This document shows, one piece after another, positions 4,575 through 30,246 of a DNA stretch of 64,000 bases. The notes below the pieces were generated by a model that worked only from the letters and a program-made list of their open reading frames with translations, was not told the DNA's origin and did no database searches. The DNA is taken from NCBI GenBank assembly GCA_964544935.1, contig CAZJDZ010000001.1, positions 27,018 to 91,017 on the forward strand, written 5' to 3'. The translations under genes were made by a program, and so were the position numbers. How positions within the stretch are numbered: position 1 is the first letter of the stretch; each line of letters starts with the position of its first letter. The DNA comes from an uncultured Candidatus Saccharibacteria bacterium (lineage in GTDB: Bacteria; Patescibacteriota; Minisyncoccia; Phycocordibacterales; UBA5272).

Positions 4575-4667
4575 GCGGTGATTATGGGTTAAGTACCCAC
4601 AGGTCTTGACCCCATAAGGGTATTTTAGCATCTTTTTCGAGCTCTAAAATATGTATGTGGGTCGCTA
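4575..4667. repeat. copy A of a ~90-bp intergenic repeat family (GGTTAAGTACCCAC ... CCATAAGGGTATTT ... AAAATATGTATGTGGGTCGCTA)
   Basis: Near-identical blocks at 24222..24311 and 24828..24920. Contains a GTGGGT/ACCCAC hairpin. Confidence 0.7.
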
Positions 4668-4845
4668 TCCAAATGCCAATAAATGCCAAAATTCTGAACT
4701 TTTGAAAATATAAGGAATTCAGAGAAAAAGCTTTATTAATAAGGATATTGTGAAGATTTTTAGTAAAAATATGAATTTCATATTTGGCATTTTAACTTTT
4801 TGCCTGAAATTTCTTAACAACACCATAAAATGGTAAAATTTAGAA

Positions 4846-6009: not shown

Positions 6010-6104
6010 TTGATAAACGTTCCGCCAATATTTATCAACACCTCCACCGTATCCTGAAGTCACACCCTTCGGGATGTTTTAATTGTAATAACAAAATAAC
6101 GTAT

Positions 6105-7397: not shown

Positions 7398-8139
7398 CGG
7401 AGACATATTTGAGATTGCAGGACATACCATTGCTTGTGGTGACTCGCTTGATAGATTCTTTGTGAGTAAAGTAATAAATGGCAGAAAGATACGAGCAGTG
7501 ATAAGTGATCCACCGTACGGTGTAGCGTACGTAGAGAACAAGAAGGACATTGTAAGTCTTGGTGTCAAAGATGCTAAGGTAATTGTTGGCGACCAGATAC
7601 AGAGTGAATACGAATACGTACAGTTCACCAAGAAGTGGACTGAATGTGTCATTCCTCATTTGGACAAATACAACACCTTCCATATCTTTAACTCAGATAC
7701 GATGTTTCTAGGATTACGTACTGGGATGCAGATGGCTAATATTCATTTCAGTCAGATGCTCATCTGGCTTAAGAATCAACCGGTGATGGGTATGAAGGAT
7801 TACTTGTCTCAGTTTGAAGTCATTGCTTACGGTTGGTATGGGAAGCATAAGATGGAACGATCAAAAGCAAAGAGTGTTATCTATCATCCAAAGCCACGAT
7901 CTTCCAAGCTTCACCCTACACAAAAGCCAGTTGGATTACTGAGGAAAATAATCCCGAACGTTACGGTCATTGGTGATTACGTTTACGACGCCTTCTCAGG
8001 AAGTGGAACGACTGCTATTGCTTGTGAACACTTAGGTCGAAAGTGTATTGGTATAGAGCTTGATCCAGAGTATGTAAAAGTCATACTTTCACGTCTTGAG
8101 AAGCTAACCAAACAAAAAGCAGTCAAACGAATAGACTGA
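7384..8139 (+). CDS. N4/N6 DNA methyltransferase (orphan-type)
   Basis: ISDPPYGVAYV (motif IV) and FSGSGTTAIACEHLGRKCIGIELD (motif I). It overlaps the upstream gene by 14 nt. Confidence 0.8.
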   Translation: MVVNNGDIFEIAGHTIACGDSLDRFFVSKVINGRKIRAVISDPPYGVAYVENKKDIVSLGVKDAKVIVGDQIQSEYEYVQFTKKWTECVIPHLDKYNTFHIFNSDTMFLGLRTGMQMANIHFSQMLIWLKNQPVMGMKDYLSQFEVIAYGWYGKHKMERSKAKSVIYHPKPRSSKLHPTQKPVGLLRKIIPNVTVIGDYVYDAFSGSGTTAIACEHLGRKCIGIELDPEYVKVILSRLEKLTKQKAVKRID

Positions 8140-8519
8140 TGGACGAGCTAACACAAAGAAAAGGTGGAGTATACCGTAAGCAAGATTTTAACTCTTACGT
8201 TCTTTGGAAGTCCCTGCCTTCATTTCTCAAAGGTCAGCCAAAAATCATGCTTGAGAAGTTTGGCATCACTGATGGGCTTGCAGTTGAGCTACTCCAAATC
8301 AAAACACAAGGAGAGTTTGCGACGAAGTTTGGCATCAAAGACCCAGGCACACTCACCGACTGGAACAAACGAATTGAGAAAGAAGGACTACTCACATCCA
8401 TTAACTCATGGGCAAGAAGTCTTACGCCAAACGTGGTGCTTGCTCTCTACAAGAATGCAAGTAAGCATGGTAAAGCCCAAGAAGTGCGTGCATGGTTTGA
8501 AATTATAGAAAACAATTAA
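8139..8519 (+). CDS. hypothetical protein, possible HTH/DNA-binding (terminase-small-subunit-like guess is weak)
   Basis: 126 aa; start overlaps the upstream stop (TGATGG). No firm motif. Confidence 0.45.
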   Translation: MDELTQRKGGVYRKQDFNSYVLWKSLPSFLKGQPKIMLEKFGITDGLAVELLQIKTQGEFATKFGIKDPGTLTDWNKRIEKEGLLTSINSWARSLTPNVVLALYKNASKHGKAQEVRAWFEIIENN

Positions 8520-8524
8520 ACACT

Positions 8525-8734
8525 ATGGAACCCAAGATCAAAAAAGTCCTCACCCTAGAGGAAATCAATGAAATCCTCTCAGACGCACTCATGCGTGTAT
8601 CTGAGAGAAAATTACCCCTTAGACAAGCAACACTTATCTCAAAGCTTGCCCTATCACTCTCTAAGAACATCGTGAACACCGAGCTTAAGAACAGAGTCGA
8701 GTTCTTAGAGCAACAACTTAAACAAAGAAAATAG
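8525..8734 (+). CDS. hypothetical small protein (69 aa)
   Basis: Tightly packed in the same operon, with 6-nt and 3-nt gaps to its neighbours. Confidence 0.4.
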   Translation: MEPKIKKVLTLEEINEILSDALMRVSERKLPLRQATLISKLALSLSKNIVNTELKNRVEFLEQQLKQRK

Positions 8735-8736
8735 CT

Positions 8737-10212
8737 ATGAAAAATATCTCTGATTTACTCCGTACTGGTAACCTTACTCCCAAAGAGAGGATACTCTTCT
8801 GTATACATGATGAAATACAGGAGTTAAAGACTGGTCTAAAGTCACTCACTCCCTCTGATCTCTATGCACTCTCTTCTGGATGGAGACCAAAGGATAGCTA
8901 TGAAGCACAGGAATACAACAAGTACTACAATGCATGGGATGTCATACAACTTCTTAAAATAGATGTGCAGACGACCTACTTAAACACCATTATCGATATA
9001 CGTAGCATGGAACGAGTACTTGCTTACCTTATGTATAGCAAGGAACCGAAGAATCTCTTGGCTGGGAAAGGGTTTGACGATGAGGCACTCCGCGAGATAC
9101 TGAGGAATACTGGACTCGACTACAACCTTCTCCTACATCGACTTACATTTGATGGATTACCACTCAACATACAGAAAGACCTACTTGCACTTGATCCTGA
9201 CGCAGAGACAAGTACTCAATACTTTGACCACGAGAAGAAGTTGTACGAGGTGTTGAATGGTAAAACTTCACTTACCTCTAAAGAGGTCGACACCCTGACA
9301 GACATCGTCATCGACTCCATTCCGTGGGAGTACTTAAGCCTCGTCACAGATAGAGGTCTCAATTTCATGAACATTCTTTTTAATGGATACTTTGCCAGTA
9401 TTCCGCTTGTTGTCTTTGCTGAGAAGTTAGCAAAGAAGCTACACATTGAGTACGAGAATGAAGATGAACTGAAAGCAAAAGTAGCTAAGGTACCAAACAT
9501 ACAGAATGAGCTACGAACACTCATTCATGATGAGATACAAGGTGGACTATTCTTTAGAGATTATGCACCACTCTGTAACAGTACCACCCACGAAACATGT
9601 AGTGATACCGATACCAAGTTACCCCACCACGAACTCATGGAGTTATGGATGAAGGAGAAAGCAAAGCAGGAAAAATTCTTACAAGGGTACATTGATAGCG
9701 GAAAGCTTGTTGTGGAAGATAGACAAAAGGAACTATTCACTATACGTAAATGCTACAAATCCATCACTGGAGAAAGTCTTTACTATTTAGATGAGGACTT
9801 ACCTTTCGTAAACGATTACAAGAAGCAAGTCGAGAAGTTACTGATACTCGGCTGTCTTCTTGCCTTCATCAAGAGGCGACCATTTTTGCAGTACTATGCT
9901 GAACTACTCTACTTCAATGTGTTTCTTGAAAAGGCGTCGAAAATATTTGAGATTGATCTTGCATTCTACGGAGAAAACTATACGAACGTCATCAAAGAAG
10001 AGGTTAATTTACTTAATGAACAGATTCTGATTATCGCTGAAAAAGTGGAGGAAGGATTATACCTAAAAAATGACATACGCTACCACGCAGAAATATATAT
10101 ACATGACATGCAGATATCGGTAGATGACGTTACTCCAGTGACTAATCGTTGCTTAGAACTTGCAGAGAAAAAGATTGACGAATCGTTTAGAGGTTGGTGG
10201 GGGAAGATGTGA
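8737..10212 (+). CDS. hypothetical protein (491 aa)
   Basis: Long ORF that ends the co-directional module 6105..10212. No Walker or nuclease motifs were seen. Confidence 0.55.
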   Translation: MKNISDLLRTGNLTPKERILFCIHDEIQELKTGLKSLTPSDLYALSSGWRPKDSYEAQEYNKYYNAWDVIQLLKIDVQTTYLNTIIDIRSMERVLAYLMYSKEPKNLLAGKGFDDEALREILRNTGLDYNLLLHRLTFDGLPLNIQKDLLALDPDAETSTQYFDHEKKLYEVLNGKTSLTSKEVDTLTDIVIDSIPWEYLSLVTDRGLNFMNILFNGYFASIPLVVFAEKLAKKLHIEYENEDELKAKVAKVPNIQNELRTLIHDEIQGGLFFRDYAPLCNSTTHETCSDTDTKLPHHELMELWMKEKAKQEKFLQGYIDSGKLVVEDRQKELFTIRKCYKSITGESLYYLDEDLPFVNDYKKQVEKLLILGCLLAFIKRRPFLQYYAELLYFNVFLEKASKIFEIDLAFYGENYTNVIKEEVNLLNEQILIIAEKVEEGLYLKNDIRYHAEIYIHDMQISVDDVTPVTNRCLELAEKKIDESFRGWWGKM

Positions 10213-14158: not shown

Positions 14159-15265
14159 TTAAAGCTTTACAACTTTACCATCCTTTACAACCCAAACCTC
14201 AGTTCCTTGATTTCTTATACCTCTACCGTCAAAAATAACAGTGCCTGAATATCCTTTAAAGTCAGATTTTGATATTTTTTCAACCCATGTAGTCTTATTG
14301 GTATCGTAGTTATTAAGAAGTGTTGTTATTCCATCGTAACCATATTCGGCAAACGGACTTGGGTCAATACCATACATTGCTTTATATTTTGTTTTAAACT
14401 CTGTCAGATCACTAGTAGTAAATTGAAGAGTTACAGCCCCATTAAGTTTCTTCATATCACCAACTTGTTTTTCATATTCTGACCACCCAGTTTGGAGCTG
14501 AGCATCATAATAGAAAGCAACTTTAGTTGGATTTACACCAAGGAAAAGTAGATTCTTTGTAAGCTCAGATCCGATGTATGGCTCTGTGAGAAAAACTACA
14601 CCATCTGCACCAGACTCTTTTATCTTTGCAGCAATTGTTTTTGCGTCGTCTTTTGAATTGATTAAAAGGTCAACTTTATCTTTTGTATAAACACCAGAGA
14701 AAGCGTTGTAAAAGCCAATAGATGCTGGGGCATTTGTTGAATGAACGAGAGCAAGTTTTTTATGTGATGCATTATTTTGTACATATTCAGCAAGCTTCAC
14801 AATTTGACCATTTGCATCTGCTGACATCTGAAAGATATTATCTTTACCAACCCCATCATTTTGAAGTCCAACACAAACAACTGGAATACCATCAGCTATC
14901 ATTTTTTCATGAAGAGCATCAAGCACAGGTGTGGAGACCATGAACAATCCATCAATATGGTCGAGGGACGTCATTTTTGTATAAGCAGTAAAACCAGTCT
15001 TTGCGTCAAATTTATCATCAGCCTGTTCCGTAACAATCTCAATATTTGGATGAGATGCTTTGAAGTCTTTTATTGCCATATCAGCTGCTTTGCCGACACC
15101 TTCCCCAATCGCGCCGTACTGGCTTGTTAGAGGAAGCATAATACCTATTTTAATAGTTTGTTTTTGCTGTGTTGCCACCTCGGCTGTCTTCCTTTGAGAA
15201 AATAAAACAGCTCCTCCAACAACAAGCGCTACAACAAGAATTATTAATGGTAATTTATTTTTCAT
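14159..15265 (-). CDS. periplasmic-binding-protein type 1 substrate-binding protein (Leu/Ile/Val-binding family), lipoprotein/secreted
   Basis: N-terminal signal/TM segment and PBP1 fold features; first gene of the liv-type operon. Confidence 0.8.
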   Translation of the reverse strand: MKNKLPLIILVVALVVGGAVLFSQRKTAEVATQQKQTIKIGIMLPLTSQYGAIGEGVGKAADMAIKDFKASHPNIEIVTEQADDKFDAKTGFTAYTKMTSLDHIDGLFMVSTPVLDALHEKMIADGIPVVCVGLQNDGVGKDNIFQMSADANGQIVKLAEYVQNNASHKKLALVHSTNAPASIGFYNAFSGVYTKDKVDLLINSKDDAKTIAAKIKESGADGVVFLTEPYIGSELTKNLLFLGVNPTKVAFYYDAQLQTGWSEYEKQVGDMKKLNGAVTLQFTTSDLTEFKTKYKAMYGIDPSPFAEYGYDGITTLLNNYDTNKTTWVEKISKSDFKGYSGTVIFDGRGIRNQGTEVWVVKDGKVVKL

Positions 15266-15369
15266 AGTTAATTAGTTTTAATTATTTTAGTATATCTCTA
15301 CAAATCTTTAAACAAAAGCTTAAAAACTTGATAAAGTGGGGATGTAATATTGTCCCCAAGTTTCCACTT

Positions 15370-15474
15370 ACCCTCTTGTGGGCGGAGTTTGTGGTACTGG
15401 CGTCTGCACACTTGTTGTCGTTGGTCGACGAAGAGGTTTTCCTCTTCCGCAAGAACCAGAATTTGCTGTCATGA
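15370..15474 (-). CDS. unlisted 34-aa ORF MTANSGSCGRGKPLRRPTTTSVQTPVPQTPPTRG with a strong Shine-Dalgarno
   Basis: AAGGAG sits 6 nt upstream of the ATG. The ORF is locally GC-rich and is followed by a GGGGA...TCCCC hairpin; it lies between the receiver-like gene and the liv operon promoter. Confidence 0.4.
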
Positions 15475-15499
15475 CTTTCTCCTTAAAGTAGTGGTATTT

Positions 15500-16039
15500 T
15501 CAAACGAACATTGACACCAGCTCGCCAACAGCCCTGTCCCAATCCTTTCGGTCAAGGATGATTGGAATCTTACCTGAAGGATGAACTGGACTCAGCATCT
15601 TTGCTAATAGTGGTACAAAACCAACGTCATGATGATTTGTATCAGAACACATCACAACAGGAAATTTCTTCTCTATGGCTGTTAAGAGCACCTCTATGCC
15701 GTTGGCTTGCATTATTCCTGTTGTCCCCGGAAACATCAGATCGGTCAGAATGCCAGCTTTCGGGAAAACAGTGCCGAACCTATCCATTTGGTCAAAACCA
15801 TTCTTGGCTTCTGTAAGATTCCTTGCCCTCATTATCGTAATAACATTGTCGTTATTCTTATACCCTCTCCAAGAGGGAAGATTGAGTTGTTCCCTCAGGC
15901 TTGCGAGCCCCAAGTACGAACCATCATCTTCCGTTAGAATTCCGAAGTGCTTCTTAATGGCAGTTTCTGCAGTAATCGCTTCGTCGTCCTTGTCTTCGAC
16001 AATCAAGATGATAATGCTTTCCATGGACTTTCTCCTCAA
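15500..16039 (-). CDS. stand-alone receiver(CheY)-like domain protein, atypical
   Basis: IILIVEDKDDE and TDLMFPGTTG resemble receiver motifs, but with a long insertion between them. Confidence 0.4.
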   Translation of the reverse strand: MRRKSMESIIILIVEDKDDEAITAETAIKKHFGILTEDDGSYLGLASLREQLNLPSWRGYKNNDNVITIMRARNLTEAKNGFDQMDRFGTVFPKAGILTDLMFPGTTGIMQANGIEVLLTAIEKKFPVVMCSDTNHHDVGFVPLLAKMLSPVHPSGKIPIILDRKDWDRAVGELVSMFV

Positions 16040-16205
16040 TGATCTCGAAAAGCACTTTGCTTATCGTCTGCAAGTAGTATGCCAGATAAGGCATTGACAG
16101 TAAACAATAAAGTTGTATTAAGGTGATGTTTTCCATAATATCTTTATAAGATAAGCTATTTTTGGATTCTAAAATATCGAATAAACTTTACATAATTAAA
16201 AAAAA

Positions 16206-17009
16206 GTGTATACTTTGTGCATGGAATTACATATTCTCGGGCTCTCATCTAAAGAAGAAAAAGTTTTACTCAGTGTTCAAGAGGGTCACTCAACTGTTGT
16301 TGACATCGCTTCAAACACCAAAGTAACCAGACCCTCTGTTTATGATATTTTAAAGAAACTCAAAAAGAGGGGTCTTGTTATACACAAAACAGAACATGGT
16401 AAAAAAAGATGGTATATGGAGAATGAAAAAAAATTAACAGATAATCTATATTTACTAAAAAAGAAGCTCCTCTCATTTATAGATGGGAAAGAAGAGATCG
16501 AAAGTGTGACGGACGGAACTGTTATTGTACACCGTGGGAATGAGGCTATAAAAAAGGCTATTTGGGATATGTTTAGCTCACGAAAAAATGAGCGCTTCCT
16601 TGGTTATATGGGGTTCGAGCAAACAGTACATGGATGGGAAGACCTTTTTACACTTCAGGAAATAAGTTCTATGAACAAGATACTTAAAGAAAATAAAATT
16701 ATTACAGAGGCAGTTTTCCCTGAAAACTGGGCTGAAAATATGTTTGCAAAATATGGTGAGGCTTGGGCTAAGGACTACGAAGGGAGGACTGCTTCAAACG
16801 TATATGTTGACGCTAAATATTTTCATACAAGCGGTCAACTTTTTGCATTTAAAGACGTTATGTATTTATTAGCACTTAAAGACAAAATGATAATAGAGGT
16901 AAGACATTCAGACATCCAAAAAATGATACTTGGAATGTACTCATTTATGAAAGATAAGGGCGAGGTTGTTGATATTAACAAGAGACTGAGAGATCTAATT
17001 TCTCATTGA
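16206..17009 (+). CDS. TrmB-family winged-helix transcriptional regulator
   Basis: N-terminal LGLSSKEEKVLLSV..TVVDIASNTKVTRPSVYDILKKLKKRGLV wHTH. It is paralogous to the 18251..19114 product. Confidence 0.55.
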   Translation: MYTLCMELHILGLSSKEEKVLLSVQEGHSTVVDIASNTKVTRPSVYDILKKLKKRGLVIHKTEHGKKRWYMENEKKLTDNLYLLKKKLLSFIDGKEEIESVTDGTVIVHRGNEAIKKAIWDMFSSRKNERFLGYMGFEQTVHGWEDLFTLQEISSMNKILKENKIITEAVFPENWAENMFAKYGEAWAKDYEGRTASNVYVDAKYFHTSGQLFAFKDVMYLLALKDKMIIEVRHSDIQKMILGMYSFMKDKGEVVDINKRLRDLISH

Positions 17010-17025
17010 AATATTTAGGTAACAA

Positions 17026-17058
17026 AAAACAAGCATGTTTTTAATGCTTGTTTTTTGT
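17026..17058. terminator. bidirectional hairpin aacaagcat-gtttttaa-tgcttgtt flanked by A/T runs
   Basis: Located between convergent genes 16206..17009 (+) and 17078..18169 (-). Confidence 0.6.
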
Positions 17059-17077
17059 TAGACGGTAAAAAGATTAC

Positions 17078-18169
17078 TTATTTGATAGCAGTAACTGACC
17101 AATATAGATTTGTTATATCTCCCTTCTGATCAAAGACGTAGTTTTTTGCAAACCCTTTTTGTTCTTTTGATACTAGGTAATCGTGAGTATTAGCGCTTCC
17201 TTTCACTAGTTCAGCACGTGCAACAATCATAGTAAGGTCATATGAGGACTCAGCATATTTGTTTGGTGTTTTACCGTATGCCTGCTCATATTTTTTATTG
17301 AACTCATCTGATCTAGCACTTTCAATCATACTCAAGTTATTGTTTTTTACTTCAATTTTCTTTTCATCAACAGCAACCTTTAAGTAGTTAGTTCCGAGAA
17401 CTGGTACATTATAGTTTAGTTCTTGCATCTTCTTAACGAGAGCAATAGCACCAGCTTCAGTTCCTGTCCAAACAATTCCATCAACCTTCTTTGACTTTGC
17501 CTTAACAATAAGAGTTGAAAGTATTGTTGCTTCATCTGTATATGTGAACTGCTCTTTCATTCCTACAACAACACCAGAGTTCTGTGCCGCTTTAGTCCAA
17601 GCGTTTGTGTGTGCAACGCCCCACGTACCATCAACAGTAAGGATAGCGAGGTTGGTAACTTTGTTATCCTTTAGCCACTTTTCAGTAGGTGTTTGGATTT
17701 GATAAATAGGAGAAACACCGTGAATGAGGTGTGTCTTATCTTGATCACTTCCATCTACAACATCAGATGATGTGTCTGCAATTACTGCCGTCATTCCATT
17801 CTGTGCTATCACAGGGAGAGCGGCTGAAATCTGATATGACCAAGTAGGACCAAAAATTGTTTTAACACCTTTGCCGTTCATATAACTTACACCAGTGACA
17901 GTTTTCTTTGGATCTGTAGCATCATCGTAGTATTCAACATTGAGATCAATACCTTCCTTCTTGAGGTCGGCTTTAGCAAGTTCAATACCATCCTTAATGT
18001 TTCCACCATCAATTGCCGCATACCCTGTAAGAGCAAGAACTGCCCCTACGTTCACTGTTTTGTTAGCGGTTACTATTTCGCTTGAAGCATCTTTTCCATT
18101 TAAGAAATATGCCCCAGTAGCGATAACAACAACTGCTAATAATGTAAGTAATATATTTTTAGTTTTCAT
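17078..18169 (-). CDS. orphan PBP1-type substrate-binding protein (Leu/Ile/Val-binding family)
   Basis: Likely start MKTKNILLTLLAVVVIATG (signal peptide); paralogous in fold to the 14159..15265 product. Confidence 0.75.
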   Translation of the reverse strand: MKTKNILLTLLAVVVIATGAYFLNGKDASSEIVTANKTVNVGAVLALTGYAAIDGGNIKDGIELAKADLKKEGIDLNVEYYDDATDPKKTVTGVSYMNGKGVKTIFGPTWSYQISAALPVIAQNGMTAVIADTSSDVVDGSDQDKTHLIHGVSPIYQIQTPTEKWLKDNKVTNLAILTVDGTWGVAHTNAWTKAAQNSGVVVGMKEQFTYTDEATILSTLIVKAKSKKVDGIVWTGTEAGAIALVKKMQELNYNVPVLGTNYLKVAVDEKKIEVKNNNLSMIESARSDEFNKKYEQAYGKTPNKYAESSYDLTMIVARAELVKGSANTHDYLVSKEQKGFAKNYVFDQKGDITNLYWSVTAIK

Positions 18170-18250
18170 AGTGTTTATATAAAGTAAAGTATAGCAAGAT
18201 TTACAATGCATTCTTTACTGATATCAACATAGTATCACAAAAGAGCAAGT

Positions 18251-19114
18251 ATGTCAATTAGAATTGTGTCAGATTATGGTTACTCTTTACATTGTAAAAC
18301 AAAGGTATTATACTTAACTGTAATGAAAAATATGACACCTAAAAATGAACAAGGTTTAGAAAGCGAACAAAAAGCACTTGTTGATAGACTTACAGCATTT
18401 GGCTTTTCGTCTCGTGAAGCGCTTGTATATATTTACTTACTAAAAAAAGGCATAGAAACTGGTGGTTCAAAAATAGCGACTGGGACAGGTCTTCATAGAC
18501 AGTACGTGTACACTGCCCTTCTTAAACTTATAGAAGAAGGTCTTGTTGAGGAAGTTCCTCACGGAAAGCAATCAAAATACAAAGCAATGCCACCTATAGA
18601 AATAGAAAAGATTGGGCGAAGACGTTCAATTATTGCCTCTGATCTTGCGCGTGATCTTAACGTGATCAGCTCAATTGGTAATAACCAAGATTTTGAAGTG
18701 ATACAGGGTGTACGAGCAATTCAACAATATGAAATGAACTACATTGAACAAGCTAGCTCAACTTGGGAGGAATACATTATAGGTGGCGCTTCAGAAAAGT
18801 TCAGTCTTCTTATGGGAGATTACCTAGGAGAATATCTTGCTGAAAAAAATAAAAAGAATATGACGGTACGATATTTAGGAAGCATTAATGAGATAGACCT
18901 CTATAAGAATTATCTTGGGATATATAAAAACCAAGAGTATCGTTTTATGGATGACCTGCCAAGCGGTGTAAGTCATATGGTAATAAGAAACGAGTCAGTT
19001 TCTTTTTATAGTTTCCTAACTCCGCCACTTATGTATGTTGTGAAGTCACCCGTTATAGCAGAAAACTACAAACAGTTCTTTATGATGCTGTGGAATATGG
19101 CACCTAAGCGGTAA
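18251..19114 (+). CDS. TrmB-family transcriptional regulator (second paralog)
   Basis: wHTH EQKALVDRLTAFGFSSREALVYIYLLKKGIETGGSKIATGTGLHRQYVYTALLKLIEEGLV. Confidence 0.55.
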   Translation: MSIRIVSDYGYSLHCKTKVLYLTVMKNMTPKNEQGLESEQKALVDRLTAFGFSSREALVYIYLLKKGIETGGSKIATGTGLHRQYVYTALLKLIEEGLVEEVPHGKQSKYKAMPPIEIEKIGRRRSIIASDLARDLNVISSIGNNQDFEVIQGVRAIQQYEMNYIEQASSTWEEYIIGGASEKFSLLMGDYLGEYLAEKNKKNMTVRYLGSINEIDLYKNYLGIYKNQEYRFMDDLPSGVSHMVIRNESVSFYSFLTPPLMYVVKSPVIAENYKQFFMMLWNMAPKR

Positions 19115-19775: not shown

Positions 19776-21101
19776 ATGAAAACAACAGCACCCAAGGGCT
19801 ATGAACTAGCTAAATCACTAACAGAACCAATAAAGACAAGGTATTGCCTCTATGCTCGTAAATCAACAGAATCTGAGGAAAGACAGGTTCTTTCTATAGA
19901 TTCGCAGATAAAGGAGATGCTTGAACTTGCAGATCGAGAAGGATTGGAAATCGTGTGTATGAAGCGTGAGTCTCACTCTGCAAAGGAAACAGGACAACGA
20001 CCGGTATTCAATGAAATAATAGACGAAATACGAGCAAAGAAATTCAATGGGATCCTGACATGGGCACCTGACCGTATCAGTCGTAACGCAGGAGATCTTG
20101 GAAAGATTGTTGACTTGATGGATGCAGGACTACTGCAAGAAATACGAACATACGGGCAGAAATTCTCAAACAACCCTAATGAAAAATTCCTGCTCATGAT
20201 TTTAGGGAGCCAAGCGAAACTTGAGAATGACAATCGTGGAGTAAACGTAAAGCGAGGGTTACGCACACGAGTAGAGATGGGTTTATGGCCTGGGCAAGCA
20301 CCACTTGGGTATCTGAATCAGCGACACTTAGATAAAAAGTGTCAGCTTATCGTTGATCCCGAGCGAGCACCTATCGTAAAGAAAATGTTTGAGAAGGTTG
20401 CGTATGAAAAACTAAGCGGAAGAAAGATATACAATTGGCTTCGTTTTGAAGCCAATTTTTATACTAGAGGAAACAAACCTTTAACGCTCAGTGGTGTCTA
20501 TCGAATCCTTGATAATCAGTTCTATCATGGACTCTTTGAACATCCGAAAGGTAGTGGTAACTGGTATACAGGTAAACACGAGCCACTGATCACTCAAGAA
20601 CTATTTGAGAAAGCTCAGGTACAGCTTAAGCGAGATAACATACAGCGTGAGAACAAGGAGTTCTCATTTACTAAACTGTTCACGTGTGGTTACTGCTCTA
20701 GTGGTATATCAGCTGAAGAAAAGTGGAAGGACCTAAAAGATGGTACTCATGCGAAATACATCTACTATTCTTGTAGTCGAGCACGAGACCGTAACTGTAA
20801 GAATAAATATATTCGTGAGGAAGAACTCATTACCGAACTGCTCAAGATTCTCGATAAGGTGGATATCAACGAGCTTGGCATGCGACAGAAACTTGAAGAC
20901 GAGATTGCGCGTTTTAATATCTTTCAAAGATCGGTACTCGGTAGCACTGATAAAGTAGACAATAGAAAAGATACTGATATTCGAAACTATGCTAAGTACA
21001 TCTTGAAAGAAGGTACTGTTATGGAGAAGCGAGAACTACTAGCGAATCTACGATCAAGAATTATTTATAAAGATAAAGAGCTTACTTTGATTGTTGAATA
21101 A
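19776..21101 (+). CDS. large serine recombinase (resolvase/invertase N-domain, recombinase domain and zinc ribbon)
   Basis: Catalytic region YARKSTESEERQVLSIDSQ; C-terminal CGYCSSG...CSRARDRNC zinc ribbon; 441 aa. Confidence 0.85.
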   Translation: MKTTAPKGYELAKSLTEPIKTRYCLYARKSTESEERQVLSIDSQIKEMLELADREGLEIVCMKRESHSAKETGQRPVFNEIIDEIRAKKFNGILTWAPDRISRNAGDLGKIVDLMDAGLLQEIRTYGQKFSNNPNEKFLLMILGSQAKLENDNRGVNVKRGLRTRVEMGLWPGQAPLGYLNQRHLDKKCQLIVDPERAPIVKKMFEKVAYEKLSGRKIYNWLRFEANFYTRGNKPLTLSGVYRILDNQFYHGLFEHPKGSGNWYTGKHEPLITQELFEKAQVQLKRDNIQRENKEFSFTKLFTCGYCSSGISAEEKWKDLKDGTHAKYIYYSCSRARDRNCKNKYIREEELITELLKILDKVDINELGMRQKLEDEIARFNIFQRSVLGSTDKVDNRKDTDIRNYAKYILKEGTVMEKRELLANLRSRIIYKDKELTLIVE

Positions 21102-21219
21102 AAAAGATTTTACTAATCAAAAAACACACGAGCACATCGTGTGTTTTTAGTTACATTCTAAGCATTCGGGTCGCTTCATTTACCTAAGCAAACGGGTTGA
21201 CTCCGATACTAAAACGTGT

Positions 21220-21309
21220 TGGCGGAGGATGTGAGATTCGAACTCACGGACCTAATAAAAGGTCGACGGTTTAGTAAACCGTTGATTTAAGCCACTCATC
21301 CAATCCTCC
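21220..21309 (-). tRNA. type II tRNA, Ser-like paralog with anticodon loop UUACUAA (anticodon ACU as read)
   Basis: Manual fold: acceptor GGAGGAT/ATCCTCC; discriminator G; encoded CCA; long variable arm GACCT..AGGTC; T-arm GTGAG-TTCGAAT-CTCAC. It differs from tRNA-Ser(GCU) at position 34 (G to A). Confidence 0.6.
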
Positions 21310-21341
21310 AAGTTCTACAATCATACCAAAATATTATACAT

Positions 21342-22001
21342 TTGAGAAATCATGGCATCGGAGTACACTTATTGCTAACTTGTTCTTCTTGCTCTTTAAC
21401 TTCTACCAATACGGAGGCATTTATGGACTTATGCCAGACAGACATGTTCCCTGGAACTATTGTTTTGCAATATATTGACCCTTCTCGACATTTCATTGGT
21501 GTTGTACTTCCAGAAACAGCTTTACGATTTCTCAAAGAAGAAGAAAGAAGGGTTTTTGCGTCTCATCAAGGAAATGGTGATCTCACTGTACACCATATGA
21601 TTTTGGTACTTGGCTGCTTTGATCTAAAAGAAGAGGAGCGGACTCTTTTTGATCACATAGGGCAGCACCCTCACCAGAACTTTCCTTGGTACGTTATCGG
21701 TGAAAAGCGACAAGCTGTAGCTGAACATTTTACAGAAGAGCTTGCTCTTTTTAGAGTGCAACACTTACAACTATCATCTGGTGAAACCCATGCACGGACT
21801 CTACGAAGAAGAAGTTTTTCTTTTAGCCCAAAACATGCGGAAACACTGGGGCTGATTCTTTTTGTGCAAAGATACCTTTCTGGCAAAAGTGATGACGAGC
21901 TTCTCGTTGGAAGATGGGAATTTGGTAGACAAGGAGAGCTTGTTCTTGAAACACTCAAGGTACTCTTTCCTCGCGATAACACATGGAGAGCTTCGTTGTA
22001 A
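21342..22001 (+). CDS. hypothetical protein (likely start at MDLCQTDMF, about 21423), moderately GC-rich
   Basis: The ORF ends directly before a strong bidirectional terminator. Overlapping reverse-frame ORFs look like shadow ORFs. Confidence 0.45.
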   Translation: MRNHGIGVHLLLTCSSCSLTSTNTEAFMDLCQTDMFPGTIVLQYIDPSRHFIGVVLPETALRFLKEEERRVFASHQGNGDLTVHHMILVLGCFDLKEEERTLFDHIGQHPHQNFPWYVIGEKRQAVAEHFTEELALFRVQHLQLSSGETHARTLRRRSFSFSPKHAETLGLILFVQRYLSGKSDDELLVGRWEFGRQGELVLETLKVLFPRDNTWRASL

Positions 22002-22022
22002 TAATTCCAGAGAAAAAAGACT

Positions 22023-22050
22023 AACCCCTGCACTTGGCAGGGGTTTTATC
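22023..22050. terminator. bidirectional hairpin aacccctgcc-aagt-ggcaggggtt
   Basis: Lies between convergent genes; the plus strand continues with ttatctttc. Confidence 0.6.
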
Positions 22051-22074
22051 TTTCTATATAGATGTGCTGTATTT

Positions 22075-22653
22075 TTAGTTATTTCTTCCAAAGAATCTAC
22101 CGATGAAACCACGAATACCTGCAGCTGGTCTATTTTCACCCATAGCATCACCATCACGAGAATTATATTCTCCTGTAGGTTCTCCATTTTGTGCAGGAAC
22201 AGCTGATACCACTGGGGTACCAGGCATCGCATTCCCTCTTCCTGCATCACCTGTAGTAGACCCTGGCTGACCTGCTGGGCGACCAATAGTAATTGTTTTA
22301 TTACCAATAAGAGCTTTTAGTTTGACATCATACTCTGCATTTAATGCTTTTAACTTTGCAATTCGTTCTTCTTGAAGTGCTTTTATCTTTGCATCAAGAG
22401 CTGTGTCCCCTGTTGTAATTGTTGGCATGACAGCCATCATGTTAGCAGGAATAGCTCGAGCAGATGCTGTAGGAGCACTTGCTTTACCATACATTGTATT
22501 AACAACTCCTCCAGTTGGAGCACCTGTTACTTGCATTCTCCCCATTACTGCAGGTTCTCTAGGTGCCACAGAAGAAGCGTCACCAGCATCTTGTGCAAAC
22601 ACTGTTCCTATCGCAACAAACGCAATACTTGTCGAAATAATATATTTTTTCAT
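22075..22653 (-). CDS. secreted Gly/Ala/Pro/Thr-rich protein with signal peptide
   Basis: Start MKKYIISTSIAFVAIGTVFAQ; low-complexity mature part. Confidence 0.55.
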   Translation of the reverse strand: MKKYIISTSIAFVAIGTVFAQDAGDASSVAPREPAVMGRMQVTGAPTGGVVNTMYGKASAPTASARAIPANMMAVMPTITTGDTALDAKIKALQEERIAKLKALNAEYDVKLKALIGNKTITIGRPAGQPGSTTGDAGRGNAMPGTPVVSAVPAQNGEPTGEYNSRDGDAMGENRPAAGIRGFIGRFFGRNN

Positions 22654-22747
22654 ATGCAGTAAGTATAGCAAATGTACAGAGAACGTGTGTGAGTAACTAA
22701 AGAAAAAGATACACCCGCCGAAGCGGGTGCCTCGTGGGTGTATTGTT

Positions 22748-23110
22748 TTAGAAACGTATTTCGGTGGCACGAAAACCAAGTTCTTGTGGCGTCCACTGAG
22801 GGTTACTTTTCAAAATCATAACCTCCAAAAGACTACGCTGAAGATCATTCTTGATAATCTTGGTTATCAATCTCTTAAGTGCAGAGATCTCTTTCTGTTC
22901 AGTGTACTTTTTCTGACAAGCGACAGTAATCATAGAGACAAGAATTCCTTGATCTTTTTCTACTGCCAGCTTGTACAGTGTTATTGCAGCACTATCAGGT
23001 ACACGCAAACCTTGTTCCCAATTCTTGATATTTGCGGCAGGAACCCCAAACAGAATTGAAATCTCTGCCTGAGAAAGATTCAGACCATTACGAATACTTG
23101 CAAAGTTCAT
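22748..23110 (-). CDS. XRE-family HTH transcriptional regulator
   Basis: GLNLSQAEISILFGVPAANIKNWEQG helix-turn-helix; a rho-independent terminator lies downstream (22705..22740). Confidence 0.7.
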   Translation of the reverse strand: MNFASIRNGLNLSQAEISILFGVPAANIKNWEQGLRVPDSAAITLYKLAVEKDQGILVSMITVACQKKYTEQKEISALKRLITKIIKNDLQRSLLEVMILKSNPQWTPQELGFRATEIRF

Positions 23111-23365
23111 TTTTGGCCCTTGTTGTTGAACGAATTTACTCTACATTAAAAGTATTAACGAGTCAATTAAATTATTGACACTTGTAAAATTAGTATTTTT
23201 GAAAACTTTCTCTGTAGAGACGAGAAGCTGCTCGGTCACCACTTTGGTATTATAATTTCATGATTACACTGAAAAAAAACACTCGAGGTACCTGCCTTAG
23301 CACAGATGCAACATTTTAATACAAAAAATAGTGTGAATCTAGGTAATATATTATTGGTATTTAAA

Positions 23366-23674
23366 CTACTTTTTATTATTTACTAAATGTATTAGAATCC
23401 AAATATTTATATAAAAATATAAAAATTGAAATAGTAAAGAAGCAATATTCTCTATAAGTGAGTAGTGACCAGTTTGATTCCCATCTAAACCTATACCTAT
23501 AAATAAAGGTACTCTTATATGCTCTAAAAAAATCCACGGGAAACCAAACACAGCTAAAAATAGTTTACTAAGTGTTAGGCCATCATGTGGTACAATTGTA
23601 AGATTGTATAATAATATTAAAGAGATAGCGAAAGTTAATACTAATATAAATATAGATAATTTATTTAATTTCAT
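23366..23674 (-). CDS. small hydrophobic membrane protein
   Basis: 102 aa, three predicted TM segments. Confidence 0.4.
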   Translation of the reverse strand: MKLNKLSIFILVLTFAISLILLYNLTIVPHDGLTLSKLFLAVFGFPWIFLEHIRVPLFIGIGLDGNQTGHYSLIENIASLLFQFLYFYINIWILIHLVNNKK

Positions 23675-23740
23675 AATTTAATGATACTACATATCCAATT
23701 ATATTATGTAGAATATCCACACTTTTTAACTTAAAGGTAG

Positions 23741-23817
23741 TTTTATTTGCGGAAACGAGAGGATATTCGGTCACAAATCTGCCTCCCGACTCACTGCGTT
23801 CGCTGGAGAGGATCCGG
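23741..23817. repeat. direct repeat copy 1, ~70 bp, starting with tRNA-Ser 3'-end-like sequence GCGGAAACGAGAGGAT
   Basis: Second copy at 23990..24056 (about 95% identical). Both resemble the 3' acceptor/T-stem of tRNA-Ser(GCU) at 25507..25535. Confidence 0.7.
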
Positions 23818-23989
23818 TCACCAAACATATCTTTTTATTTTCGTCTTACAGACTAAATAAAAAGATTGTTTCGCGACCCCGGCTTCGACACTTCAGTTTT
23901 GATTACAAAACTGGCTTCGCAGTGTCTCAGTTCGAACCCTCTTCATTCTCTCGCAAAATATAAATCACCCAAAGCTTTGCTTTGGGTTC

Positions 23990-24056
23990 ATTATTTTGCG
24001 GAGACGAGAGGATATTCGGTCACAAATCTACCTCCCGACTCACTGTGTTCGCTGGA
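23990..24056. repeat. direct repeat copy 2 (tRNA-Ser 3'-end-like)
   Basis: ttattttgcggagacgagaggatattcggtcacaaatctacctcccgactcactgtgttcgctgga. Confidence 0.7.
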
Positions 24057-24221
24057 CTAGAATTTTAACAGATTGATTACAATCTAAAAAATTCGTCGCG
24101 CATGCTCGAAGCAGATTCGCGACCCCTATTCGAATCCTCACGCATGACGCGCAGGCGTCATGCTTCGTCTCCTCAGAATGTAAAAAGCGACATCTTAAGA
24201 TATCGCTTTTTACATTCTGCG

Positions 24222-24311
24222 GGCCGTGTGGGTTAAGTACCCACGTGTTTAGACACCATAAGGGTATTTGATCATCTTTTTCGAGCTCTAAAATATGTAT
24301 GTGGGTCGCTA
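24222..24311. repeat. copy B of the ~90-bp intergenic repeat family
   Basis: Aligned with copies A and C. Confidence 0.7.
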
Positions 24312-24782
24312 GATTTTTATCCTTGAGTAAACTTTATCAAAACCATCAACTTGTTCTTCTTTGTATACTTCTGCATTCATTTTTTGTAAGAAAGAAAACA
24401 TCATCGGAAACTTTTTTGGGAAAGTATTAAGTAAAATATATTCGTAGCCTTTTTCTTTTGCATACGCAACCACATCACTATACATTTTTGACCATACACC
24501 TTTACCTCTTGCTTCAGGATCAACCCCAGCAAGCCATATTTTGAAATCTCCTTCATTTGTGACATCACACACGGTGAACCCTTTGGTAGATTCTCCTTCA
24601 TTAACCACAACAAAATATCCGCCATTATTGATTCTTTTTAACCATTCATCTTTGTTGTTATAGAGCGATTGTTCTTTTTCACCAAAGACTTTATCATGTA
24701 GCTCAATTGCACTCTCAACAAAACGTAAATCAGTAGATACCTCTATTTTTGGTGGTTCAGGGGTGAATTCAGGACTTTTCAT
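24309..24782 (-). CDS. GNAT family N-acetyltransferase
   Basis: Acetyl-CoA-binding region WLAGVDPEARGKGVWSKMYSDVVAYAKEKG. Confidence 0.65.
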   Translation of the reverse strand: MKSPEFTPEPPKIEVSTDLRFVESAIELHDKVFGEKEQSLYNNKDEWLKRINNGGYFVVVNEGESTKGFTVCDVTNEGDFKIWLAGVDPEARGKGVWSKMYSDVVAYAKEKGYEYILLNTFPKKFPMMFSFLQKMNAEVYKEEQVDGFDKVYSRIKI

Positions 24783-24827
24783 ATAGATATTCTAGCATCT
24801 GGGTCACTCCGATACTTTTACATTATG

Positions 24828-24920
24828 GCGGTGATTGTAGGTTAAGTACCCACACGTCTAGACACCATAAGGGTATTTTAACATCTCTTCCAAGCTATAA
24901 AATATGTATGTGGGTCGCTA
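24828..24920. repeat. copy C of the ~90-bp repeat family, preceded by a duplicate of the tRNA-Ser 3' flank (cgatacttttacattatggcgg)
   Basis: Aligned with A and B. The flank at 24812..24835 matches 25488..25511. Confidence 0.7.
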
Positions 24921-25487
24921 AGATATTTGTAACAAATTTTCGCTTTTAGTGAAAAGAATCGTCTGTACTCCGAAACCTTTTGCAGACTCAACATTCATTT
25001 TATTATCATCAATAAAAATAATTTCCTCTTTGCTGCAATCAGAAGACGCAAGGCATTTCTCAAAAAATTGTATATCAGGTTTTCTACATTTCACATCACT
25101 TGAAATAACAATCTCGTCGAAAAGATAGTCCAAGCTATTATCTCTAATAATCTTTCTAAGAAAATCAGAACTCGCATTAGAGCAGAGAATTATTTTATAG
25201 GACTTTTTGAGTTTTTTAAGACAAGAAACAACTTGATTATTTATTTCAATATAAGAATTAAATTCTTCATTTATCTCTTCAACAGGTCTTTGAACCTGTG
25301 CGGATAAATGATTCATTAGTTCTGAATTAGAAATCTCTCCAAGATCTGCGGGTTTAAAATATTTTTCTTTCAGTAAAATAGACTCTTCTTTTGAGAAGTA
25401 TTTCTGAAACCAGAAAGGAGCAACTTCAGAACAAATGACTCCAAAAAAATCTATCCATATTACTTTTATTTTATGATCGCGGGTCAT
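24918..25487 (-). CDS. HAD-superfamily hydrolase
   Basis: Motif I IDFFGVI, motif II CSNAS, motif IV IFIDDN. Confidence 0.65.
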   Translation of the reverse strand: MTRDHKIKVIWIDFFGVICSEVAPFWFQKYFSKEESILLKEKYFKPADLGEISNSELMNHLSAQVQRPVEEINEEFNSYIEINNQVVSCLKKLKKSYKIILCSNASSDFLRKIIRDNSLDYLFDEIVISSDVKCRKPDIQFFEKCLASSDCSKEEIIFIDDNKMNVESAKGFGVQTILFTKSENLLQIS

Positions 25488-25506
25488 GTACGATACTTTT
25501 ACTTTA

Positions 25507-25596
25507 TGGCGGAGACGAGAGGATTCGAACCTCCGAGGGATTTAACTCCCTGCCTCTTTAGCAAAGAGGTACGTTAGACCACTCTGACACGTCTCC
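25507..25596 (-). tRNA. tRNA-Ser(GCU), type II
   Basis: Manual fold: GGAGACG acceptor; anticodon arm CCTCT-TTGCTAA-AGAGG; long variable arm; T-loop TTCGAAT; discriminator G; CCA encoded. Confidence 0.85.
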
Positions 25597-28200: not shown

Positions 28201-28740
28201 TTATTCATCTTCACTAATCATATCCATGATAGCGAGCACTTCACCAGTATAAGGAGGTTCTACTGAACCGTTATAGTAGTAAAGCTTCTCTTCTGTAGAC
28301 TTTCCGGCATAGTATCGTGAAGTGTTCTTGTTAGCACCTCCTAGATTTTTACCGAGAGATTCGATAGCTTCTTCATAACTATTGAAGTTATGGCCAAGCT
28401 TACACGATCCCCAGCCAAAGGCATTATACCCACAGGCTTGCTTACCACCAGAAGATTCGCGAACACCGATAGCTGGAAGAAGTCTCCAGTCGAGACCGTA
28501 TTTTTCAGCAACAAGTACGAATGTCATACCTGTTCCTGCAAGAGGCATACTACGCTGTTTGAAGAAATGGTTAATTGCTTCTGCGCGCTCTTTACGGACG
28601 TCTTCAATCGAAACGATTTCCTTTGTTACAGGCTTTGCTTCGAGTGAACCAATATGTGAGGTAACTGAGACACTTGGGATGGCCATGAATGGCACAAACG
28701 CGAGCATCATCTGAGTAACCTTATAGATTTTGTGTGTCAT
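28201..28740 (-). CDS. secreted peptidoglycan-hydrolase-like protein (lytic transglycosylase/glucosaminidase-like core)
   Basis: N-terminal signal/TM segment; AEKYGLDWRLLPAIGVRESSGG resembles SLT-type catalytic Glu-Ser motifs. Confidence 0.45.
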   Translation of the reverse strand: MTHKIYKVTQMMLAFVPFMAIPSVSVTSHIGSLEAKPVTKEIVSIEDVRKERAEAINHFFKQRSMPLAGTGMTFVLVAEKYGLDWRLLPAIGVRESSGGKQACGYNAFGWGSCKLGHNFNSYEEAIESLGKNLGGANKNTSRYYAGKSTEEKLYYYNGSVEPPYTGEVLAIMDMISEDE

Positions 28741-29139
28741 GATTGTAGTGATTACGCTTCACCAACGTGTCGTATCTGGAATTTTTGCGAAAAATAAAAT
28801 ACCTACTCGGTAAATTATTGACTTTCCACTTTATTATTGTGTAATGTAATTATAGCACCTATTGGATCAAAAGTCAAGCATTACACAACAAAATATACTA
28901 TATTGTCAATATGCAGTTCCTAAAAAACCTTATTTTATATAGATAATTTGCAAAATAGAAAAAAACGTGTTATTATCCAATTTACCTAGTTTTCCTTACT
29001 TTTATGCGAAAACTAGTAATTTTATACGGCCTCATCGTCTATCGGTTGGGCGATCAGTAGATCGTGCCGAGAGGCTTAGCAGGTTCCTGTGTCCTGATGT
29101 AAAATACACAGTACACAACGTTTCTTTAATAAAAAATAC

Positions 29140-29211
29140 GGCCTCATCGTCTATCGGTTAGGACACAGGCTTCTCATGCCTGGAAGCGGAGTTCGATTCT
29201 CCGTGAGGTCA
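29140..29211 (+). tRNA. tRNA-Glu(CUC)
   Basis: Manual fold: GGCCTCA acceptor; D-arm GTC..GAC; anticodon arm CAGGC-TTCTCAT-GCCTG; T-arm CGGAG-TTCGATT-CTCCG. Closely resembles E. coli tRNA-Glu. Confidence 0.75.
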
Positions 29212-29367
29212 CATCAACAAAAATACACAGGTAATTCCTGTGTATTTTTGTTGACGGTGATCAATAGAAGCAAAACACCTGCGTGTTTTGCGGGAGAATC
29301 GAATGGGGCTCGCGGGACTTTATCGAGGAGTTCATGACGAGAAGTCCTGTGAGCGATTCTCTGTGAG
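29207..29367. repeat. 161-bp direct repeat R1, 100% identical to R2
   Basis: Starts at the tRNA-Glu 3' end. Contains a terminator hairpin and one copy of the conserved ~70-nt element. Confidence 0.9.
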
Positions 29368-29595
29368 CCAATATGAATTGCTTCTTGTGCGTGGAGAATC
29401 GAATACGGGCGAGTCAGCAGACGAACTAGCAAGTGAGTGTCTTGGATCGAGTGTCCTACGTGATTTCGCGAATCTGCTTCGAGCATAGCGAGGCAGATTT
29501 GTGACCGATTCTCCTTGAAGTCATCAACAAAATTTTAACCTGATTCTATTTAAAGTAAATATCGCCAAGCAGTTTCCTGCTTGGCGATTAGTTTG

Positions 29596-29868
29596 TCAGT
29601 CATGGTAGTTAGAAACGGTCGCTTTCATATTCCACTGATCATTTTCATGATCCCAGCGGAAGACTGCGAGTTCCTCAACCGAGTAACTGAGTTTAGATTT
29701 TGCCAGTTGGATGGCATTGTCCAAGGTGCCTTCAAAGTCAATGGCGCAATCAAACCTGCCACCACTCACTCTGATGTACGAGGTCGGGTAGTACCCAACC
29801 TCGTCGTCGTAATCCATACGACTAATTACATACTTTTGTACATCCGTGTTCTCCGTGGGTGCGGCCAT
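29596..29868 (-). CDS. hypothetical 90-aa protein located between the R1 and R2 repeats
   Basis: Clean ORF with its own terminator hairpin (29552..29580, atcgccaagcag-tttc-ctgcttggcgat). Confidence 0.45.
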   Translation of the reverse strand: MAAPTENTDVQKYVISRMDYDDEVGYYPTSYIRVSGGRFDCAIDFEGTLDNAIQLAKSKLSYSVEELAVFRWDHENDQWNMKATVSNYHD

Positions 29869-30085
29869 GATCAGTCTCCTTGCTTTTCAGCAAGATGACT
29901 AATCAAAGACCTTTGATTAATGAAATCATTCTTGCAATATATAAAAGCAAATATAGTATAACATACTATATCATTTTGTCAAATTATTATGTGATGTAAT
30001 CAGTAGTGAACTAAAAATTAACACATGTTGAAACCCCCTAACCCCCTTACCATCCCACCAACAATTTCCAATTTTGTACCCCTAG

Positions 30086-30246
30086 GGTCACATCAACAAA
30101 AATACACAGGTAATTCCTGTGTATTTTTGTTGACGGTGATCAATAGAAGCAAAACACCTGCGTGTTTTGCGGGAGAATCGAATGGGGCTCGCGGGACTTT
30201 ATCGAGGAGTTCATGACGAGAAGTCCTGTGAGCGATTCTCTGTGAG
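30086..30246. repeat. 161-bp direct repeat R2
   Basis: Identical to 29207..29367. Confidence 0.9.

Follow-up and report, generated by a model that had tools for sequence, protein, structure and literature searches.

Anticodons that begin with A in split codon boxes have been called 'universally missing', phages included (review PMC8007984), and a survey of cultured bacteria, covering 4,047 genomes, found split-box A34 to be sporadic and described its absence as a deep puzzle (bioRxiv 10.64898/2026.05.15.725136). The tRNA-Ser(ACU) gene presented here carries an A34 anticodon of such a box, and its closest natural analogue is the unmodified-A34 tRNA-Thr(AGU) of Mycoplasma capricolum. As cited in PMC11066159, the Mycoplasma tRNA resembles ours in that A34 is encoded in the genome of a reduced, AT-rich bacterium; it works without inosine and performs best with the U-ending codon. 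While tRNA-Thr(AGU) serves a four-fold box in which misreading is silent, tRNA-Ser(ACU) belongs to a box split between AGY for Ser and AGR for Arg, and, unlike the Mycoplasma case, its G34 partner is retained and its lineage is patescibacterial.

A gene-encoded and clade-conserved A34 is also found in tRNA-Arg(ACG) and in the tRNA-Leu(AAG) of Lactobacillales. Both undergo deamination to I34, have taken the place of the G34 isoacceptor and read four-fold boxes (bioRxiv 10.64898/2026.05.15.725136). In contrast, tRNA-Ser(ACU) departs from the TadA-dependent I34 tRNAs in its loop motif (UACU, not UACG), in G34 replacement (the G34 gene is kept) and in the meaning of the A-ending codon (AGA is Arg). 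The same anticodon has been placed on engineered tRNAs in E. coli, where it was unmodified and discriminated AGU from AGC by at least 95:5 (Schmitt et al. 2024, PMC11066159), and where ACU on the native Ser backbone was neutral or beneficial (Raval et al. 2026, bioRxiv 10.64898/2026.05.15.725136). Those tRNAs were laboratory constructs, built because a natural one was held to be absent, whereas the tRNA-Ser(ACU) described here occurs in nature, is conserved and covaries. The sporadic A34 genes of split boxes in GtRNAdb share with it the constant presence of a G34 isoacceptor, but they are scattered over single species with no clade-level retention (bioRxiv 10.64898/2026.05.15.725136). Unlike them, tRNA-Ser(ACU) was recovered from 25 species-level genomes, from two CPR superphyla and as at least 107 metagenomic sequences, with conserved synteny. 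Within the literature searched, coverage of which was incomplete, there was no description of a conserved natural bacterial tRNA-Ser(ACU), and the sole mention found of a tRNA-Ser(ACU) was in a table for chlorovirus ATCV-1. Since MAG annotation pipelines must already label such genes, and since the literature coverage is incomplete, 'undescribed' is a safer word for it than 'undiscovered'.

The window, by which we mean the whole 64-kb stretch of DNA that was analysed, contains five tRNA genes as called by ARAGORN, one of them a minus-strand tRNA-Ser (act). This gene, its flanking signals and its G34 partner are as follows:

21220-21309, minus strand: tRNA-Ser(ACU), 90 nt, type II, with G73 and an encoded CCA (ARAGORN, Rfam RF00005, fold, covariation)
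21273-21275, minus strand: anticodon ACU, with A34 at 21275 (sequence read in the ARAGORN/Infernal register)
21320-21348, minus strand: promoter-like site, -35 TTCTCA, 17-nt spacer, TG-extended -10 TATGAT (consensus scan)
21120-21148, no strand assigned: hairpin ACACACGA-GCACA-TCGTGTGT with A5 and T5 flanks (sequence reading)
25507-25596, minus strand: tRNA-Ser(GCU), the G34 partner, which reads AGC and, by wobble, AGU (ARAGORN, Rfam)

The first-pass annotation had read 21220-21309 as a 90-nt type II tRNA-Ser with G73, a long variable arm, an encoded CCA and the loop UUACUAA with A34, a tRNA of a kind rare in bacteria that would pair perfectly with AGU. Both programs agree with that description. 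ARAGORN called Ser(act) in the standard register, and the RF00005 model, matched end to end (model positions 1-71) at 53.4 bits against a threshold of 29, assigned the canonical anticodon register to ACU. The minus-strand sequence is GGAGGAUUGGAUGAGUGGCUUAAAUCAACGGUUUACUAAACCGUCGACCUUUUAUUAGGUCCGUGAGUUCGAAUCUCACAUCCUCCGCCA; A34 appears as T on the plus strand at 21275, and the anticodon is complementary to the Ser codon AGU. The acceptor, D and T stems are of 7, 3 and 5 bp respectively, the anticodon arm is ACGGU/UUACUAA/ACCGU, the T arm is GUGAG/UUCGAAU/CUCAC, and the variable arm is long and base-paired (GACC-UUUUAUUA-GGUC). The centroid fold contained the acceptor, anticodon, variable and T arms (z = -3.4). 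An allo-tRNA with 8/4 or 9/3 acceptor/T arms was ruled out by the canonical 7-bp acceptor and 5-bp T stem. The Ser identity set of E. coli consists of G73, G1-C72, G2-C71 and A3-U70; in the homolog alignment of tRNA-Ser(ACU), G1 and G2 are invariant, A3 is nearly so and a G follows the acceptor stem. Ser tRNAs with GCU, CGA and UGA anticodons at the same loci share the acceptor start of the ACU gene.

With respect to transcription signals, the promoter-like site ends 11 nt before the 5' end of the tRNA. Its placement fits that of a promoter for tRNA-Ser(ACU), for which it is a candidate, but only a suggestive one: the consensus scan returned 3 sites against 2.2 expected by chance. The hairpin is located in the gap that separates the tRNA 3' end from the stop codon of the integrase gene, 76 nt downstream of the tRNA, and is shaped like a bidirectional terminator, making it a candidate for one; it was absent from the list produced by the automatic terminator scan.

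Split-box A34 genes are merely sporadic in surveys of cultured genomes, as would be the case if the A were a sequencing or assembly error, or if the gene were a copy of tRNA-Ser(GCU) decaying as a pseudogene. The independent Logan assembly L001, from run SRR13208891, was 100% identical over 11.5 kb including the anticodon, and an identical tRNA was present in the GenBank MAG contig JAYWBQ010000001.1 (L003), which disposes of the base-call error that the first-pass annotation had allowed for. One genome per species, 185,579 species in all, was then scanned with the pattern CAACGGTTTRCTAAACCGTCGACC, which fixes the anticodon stem and has R at position 34, so that A or G was accepted. All 25 matches were Patescibacteria MAGs and all 25 carried A34, so that the question of whether relatives share the A34 allele was answered by a search which permitted G34. 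According to the NCBI lineages, the named matches include Nomurabacteria and Paceibacterota, of the Parcubacteria group, as well as Woesebacteria, of the Microgenomates group. The acceptor, D, variable and T stems differed among these tRNAs by paired substitutions, with GGAGGAU/AUCCUCC, GGAGAAU/AUUCUCC, GGAGAGA/UCUCUCC and GGAGGCG/CGCCUCC as examples from the acceptor stem.

Covariation was measured in an alignment of 32 tRNA-Ser(ACU) homologs comprising 26 distinct sequences and 24 stem pairs. Here 99% of stem cells were paired and 15 of the 24 pairs were compensatory; none of 500 shuffles reached this level, and slid 3' partners were paired at 27-57%. All four pairs of the variable-arm stem showed compensatory changes across the homologs. 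A second scan, of metagenomes, in which only the D loop, anticodon loop and T loop were fixed, returned at least 120 loci. Among the matches listed, ARAGORN called Ser(act) in 118 of 120 metagenome loci. These gave at least 107 distinct tRNA-Ser(ACU) sequences, whose anticodon stems came in about 30 variants with 97% of cells paired. The substitution patterns are those of a gene family under selection to fold as a tRNA. A pseudogene or integration remnant was excluded by the full length of the gene and by 99% stem pairing over 26 distinct sequences. Taken with an Rfam score above that of the GCU partner (53.4 against 44.4 bits) and an identity to it of 62%, the shared base in an independent assembly, the uniform A34 where G was allowed and the strong compensatory covariation leave error or decay with a vanishingly small probability.

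Paralogy to the neighbouring GCU tRNA, also proposed in the first-pass annotation, stands, but the two genes are 4.2 kb apart in the window and differ throughout their stems. Their anticodon loops are UUACUAA and UUGCUAA. The identity between ACU and GCU genes was 62% in the window and 61-74% within one genome, whereas ACU genes of different genomes had a mean identity of 89%; on this basis the two are old paralogs, the ACU gene not being a recent point mutant of GCU. Among 24 related genome loci with an ARAGORN call, ACU lay within 15 nt to 2.3 kb of GCU in 15, and tRNA-Glu(CUC) was often found about 4 kb past the pair, which is the order of the window. The ACU/GCU pair was also present in at least 27 metagenome loci among the matches listed.

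Relatives were in addition sampled independently of the tRNA, via a neighbouring protein (window 28201-28740), which gave eight contigs. The GCU gene was in a conserved block in six of the eight. Three of these six relatives had ACU beside GCU (L266, L268, L270), while in the other three (L269, L271, L272) it was absent at the locus, although a copy could be present elsewhere in the genome. As only half of the six relatives sampled without regard to the tRNA have ACU at the locus, the gene is evidently dispensable, and its distribution is widespread but patchy.

The DNA between the two Ser tRNAs of the window, and the integrase gene on the other side of tRNA-Ser(ACU), comprise the following features:

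19776-21101, plus strand: large serine recombinase/integrase (Pfam Resolvase, Recombinase and Zn_ribbon_recom; PHROG 95 'integrase', E = 8e-64)
21310-25506, no strand assigned: variable insert of 4.2 kb between the Ser tRNAs (Pfam, PHROGs, comparison with relatives)
23746-23807 and 23995-24056, no strand assigned: 3' part of tRNA-Ser(GCU) in two degenerate copies, each of 62 nt (repeat families D3, D9)
24309-24782, minus strand: GNAT cassette, after the 25-nt tRNA-end copy at 24810-24834
24810-24834, no strand assigned: 25-nt copy spanning the final 9 nt of tRNA-Ser(GCU) and 16 nt of its downstream flank (repeat family D13)
24918-25487, minus strand: HAD hydrolase cassette, after the 25-nt tRNA-end copy at 25491-25515

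Within the insert are short ORFs that match no family, a gene for an HTH regulator and the GNAT and HAD single-gene cassettes, and in many relatives the two Ser tRNAs are merely 15-900 nt apart. By blastn, 23793-24013 matched the flank directly after the intact GCU gene in L004, L006, L012 and L015. Because this segment is the native GCU downstream flank in relatives, the degenerate GCU 3' copies at 23746-24056 are integration scars. The tRNA-end copies at 24810-24834 and 25491-25515 are 92% identical, and the two cassettes (24227-25515) look like the product of serial insertion at the tRNA 3' end. Behind each cassette there is also an 85-nt repeat (24227-24311 and 24836-24920, 88% identical). 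The distance of 4.2 kb results from insertion of DNA at the GCU 3' end: an old paralog that usually adjoins GCU has here been separated from it by mobile DNA.

The serine integrase, a large one of phage type, is convergent with tRNA-Ser(ACU) and stops 119 nt from the tRNA 3' end. Integrase homologs also accompany this tRNA pair in L017 (40% identity), L160 (70%) and L203 (79%). The flank at 21107-21220 is conserved beside the ACU tRNA in L003, L006, L012 and L015, and the ACU gene together with 110 nt of downstream flank is conserved in relatives without the integrase, making it unlikely that the tRNA is cargo of an integrase element. A NUDIX gene considered as a marker of the ancestral neighbourhood was dropped, as no homology was found. 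Past the ACU gene the window is no longer syntenic with any relative, and the contig breaks at tRNA-Ser(ACU) in two independent assemblies. The arrangement identifies the tRNA pair as the marker of an integration hot spot.

Apart from the loci of CPR-like context, phage-like tRNA arrays containing Ser(ACU) accounted for 45 of 120 metagenome loci among the matches listed. Metagenome arrays of this kind include L150, L154, L161, L172, L177-L179, L184, L187, L196, L200, L202, L210, L212, L215, L241, L242, L244, L246, L254 and L255, and 11 IMG/VR contigs carried Ser(ACU) in dense multi-tRNA arrays typical of phages (L038, L039, L041, L057, L070, L103, L111, L118, L124, L125, L134). The arrays came from freshwater, marine and gut metagenomes. 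In L150 and L154 Ser(ACU) was found together with Arg(ACG), and some ACU tRNAs would therefore operate in TadA-positive hosts. The nearest cultured-phage tRNAs inspected (Aeromonas phage TSW001, Tenacibaculum phage Gundel_1) had GCU, not ACU, and GenBank phage matches to the window tRNA were annotated just as tRNA-Ser, without an anticodon. The presence of Ser(ACU) in phage-like arrays contradicts the published claim that phage tRNA sets go without the same anticodons as bacteria do. Several other unusual tRNAs were seen in these collections. Another split-box A34 tRNA, Asn(AUU), was present in IMG/VR contig L036, while IMG/VR tRNA sets such as L048 and L068 included Leu(AAG), Thr(AGU) and Val(AAC); the IMG/VR contigs with other A34 tRNAs were L036, L048, L068, L056, L030, L035 and L132. 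ARAGORN also reported a tRNA with a four-base anticodon (ggtg) at about 5884 of L215, within a 23-tRNA array, and a CUA tRNA (amber-reading, labelled 'Pyl') at about 7743 of L153, again in an array.

These surroundings bear on whether the main role of the gene is something other than decoding, namely that of an attachment site, or of a spare Ser tRNA which resists anticodon nucleases that target G34. Such a role would accord with the integration hot spot, with the serine integrase adjoining the tRNA both here and in L017, L160 and L203, with the tRNA-end scars and the contig breaks in two independent assemblies, and with the 45 of 120 listed metagenome loci that are phage-like arrays; a nuclease-resistant spare would also explain carriage in such arrays. 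However, the scars copy the GCU gene and not the ACU gene, and no anticodon nuclease was identified nearby. Moreover, all arms covary, and there is conservation of A34, of G73, of the initial GGA and of the long variable arm, the pattern produced by selection on a working, chargeable tRNA, and we consider a non-decoding main role to be very improbable.

The first-pass annotation had further raised the deamination of A34 to inosine, with reading of AGA and AGC and consequent recoding. In most bacteria an A34 tRNA is in fact an I34 tRNA, Ser(ACU) is accompanied by Arg(ACG) in some phage arrays, and A-to-I conversion has been inferred for an engineered split-box Phe-AAA tRNA in E. coli (bioRxiv 10.64898/2026.05.15.725136). 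Conversion of A34 by TadA or a related enzyme would let the tRNA read AGC and, weakly, AGA in addition to AGU, leaving AGA ambiguous or recoded. The meaning of codons was examined by aligning LepA, TypA and SecA with PDB homologs (Thermus, Thermotoga, others). Six of the 12 AGA codons fell at Arg and none at Ser, the Arg rate being the same as that of CGU (45/78) and CGA (14/24); AGU positions aligned with Ser or with small or polar residues of the distant homologs. On these alignments AGA-to-Ser recoding was rejected. AGA is, furthermore, the second most used Arg codon in the window (199 uses), and tRNA-Arg(CCU) is present there.

Nor has the G34 isoacceptor been replaced, as tRNA-Ser(GCU) is found in the window and beside ACU in relatives. 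Its retention argues against inosine, because GCU would be redundant next to an ICU tRNA; where I34 tRNAs are in use, lineages dropped the matching G34 isoacceptor (bioRxiv 10.64898/2026.05.15.725136). CPR bacteria reportedly lack tRNA-Arg(ACG) and inosine wobble, with GCG used instead (Shulgina & Eddy, PMC8629427), and tRNA-Arg(GCG), not ACG, was found on the Ser(ACU) contigs L011, L152 and L192. A tblastn search with an E. coli TadA query gave no match to a TadA-like ORF in the 64-kb window or in about 180 kb of related CPR loci. The substrate loop motif of TadA is U33-A34-C35-G36, whereas position 36 of the UUACUAA loop is U, giving UACU rather than UACG. An orthogonal ACU tRNA in E. coli was left without inosine by the TadA of that host and read AGU at 9.4%, with AGC and AGA below detection (PMC11066159). 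Inosine at position 34 is on this evidence distinctly improbable, and the proposed reading of AGA and AGC did not find support.

Decoding could also extend beyond AGU through another, undescribed modification of A34 or through superwobble in an expressed tRNA. The chemistry of position 34 is unconstrained by sequence, and PMC11066159 cites unmodified A34 reading beyond U in Mycoplasma tRNA-Thr and E. coli tRNA-Gly(ACC), that is, superwobble in some contexts, which here would cause some misreading of AGR. Four-codon reading of AGN would, however, insert Ser where Arg is encoded, whereas both AGA and AGG behave as Arg codons, and the single direct test of an ACU anticodon was highly U-specific (PMC11066159). 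We regard this broadened decoding as unlikely.

The reading that we favour, and hold to be reasonably probable, is that of a functional chromosomal tRNA-Ser isoacceptor whose A34 is most likely unmodified and reads AGU by Watson-Crick pairing. In its host, which would be a Patescibacteria (Parcubacteria/Paceibacteria-like) bacterium, the unmodified A34 would form a full Watson-Crick match with AGU, while tRNA-Ser(GCU) would cover AGC and could wobble on AGU. We infer from the sequences that the tRNA is expressed and serylated and that its reading is specific for AGU, and it may confer some fitness benefit. Two conditions probably account for its tolerance. Firstly, the seryl-tRNA synthetase (SerRS) would ignore the anticodon, and the change from G34 to A34 would carry no cost in charging. 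SerRS does not contact the tRNA anticodon, and for this reason charging should remain intact after G34A; in the other split boxes whose codons end in a pyrimidine (Phe, Tyr, Asn, Asp, Cys), the synthetases use position 34. Secondly, the lineage is apparently without a TadA/inosine system, and A34 would therefore not be converted to an I34 that misreads the Arg codon AGA. When overexpressed in E. coli, Ser-tRNA(ACU) was one of just two split-box A34 tRNAs that improved growth (bioRxiv 10.64898/2026.05.15.725136), a gain which fits the idea that SerRS ignores the anticodon.

For the broader proposition, that many Patescibacteria, and many environmental phages with tRNA arrays, have long and widely relied for decoding on a Ser(ACU) whose A34 is genuine and unmodified, we give equal weight to either outcome. 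If true, it would be the first natural clade-level A34 tRNA of a split codon box and would overturn the rule of universal absence; the real barriers would then be inosine conversion and anticodon-dependent charging, not A34 itself. A supposedly forbidden tRNA that shows compensatory evolution across two CPR superphyla and at least 120 metagenome loci makes these uncultured lineages a natural experiment on why life avoids A34, and suggests two testable conditions of tolerance, the lack of TadA and charging by an aminoacyl-tRNA synthetase to which the anticodon is irrelevant. Annotation of CPR and phage genomes, and models of codon adaptation, should expect Ser(ACU) rather than flag it as an error.

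Codon usage was compared between AGU and AGC, as the first-pass annotation had suggested. AGU outnumbers AGC about 3:1 in the window (253:86), but this ratio equals the general U-over-C bias of the other two-fold boxes. Four core genes had an AGT:AGC ratio of 23:1 against 33% C in other two-fold boxes (p = 0.0015, post hoc), an avoidance of AGC that did not replicate in three relatives, and an analysis by tertiles merely tracked local GC. When the 25 ACU-bearing genome loci were pooled the odds ratio was 0.98, with no AGU excess. Among close syntenic relatives, the AGU odds ratios were 1.36-2.27 at four ACU loci versus 0.49-1.03 at three loci without the gene, a contrast with a one-sided p of 0.029 that comes from few and phylogenetically non-independent genomes. 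SecA, LepA and TypA of the window (35494-38058, 50193-51995 and 55164-56951) contain 17 AGU and 0 AGC codons; their orthologs in three relatives use AGC freely.

The window is chromosomal, with a GC content of about 38%, and encodes SecA, LepA, TypA/BipA, a class I aminoacyl-tRNA synthetase, MurJ and a Mur ligase. An alternative genetic code was rejected, as reading UGA, UAG or UAA as sense did not lengthen the long ORFs, and code 11 was kept. The nearest relatives of LepA carry the labels Nomurabacteria, Paceibacterota or Parcubacteria and share 80-97% identity with it. The region of tRNA-Glu(CUC), at 29024-30246, is probably a second integration site. The gene itself lies at 29140-29212, a 27-nt copy of its own 5' end is found at 29024-29050, and a 161-nt exact direct repeat (29207-29367 and 30086-30246) begins at its 3' end. 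A fragment resembling the Ser(GCU) scar is present in inverted orientation at 29490-29515.

Elsewhere in the window, a block resembling a defence island (3125-10212) includes ORFs of unknown function together with the following genes:

3125-4477: OLD/Gabija/PtuA-like AAA ATPase
6105-7397 and 7384-8139: two type II DNA methyltransferases

In the relative L267 the same methyltransferase module occupies the expected place of the Ser tRNAs (14499-18493) and adjoins two serine recombinase genes. A non-coding sequence of about 100 nt (window ~4480-4670) recurs in the related genomes L003, L013, L024 and L026. Several copies of it are present in L026, some of them matching window 24104-24330, and it is possibly a small mobile repeat of a MITE-like kind.
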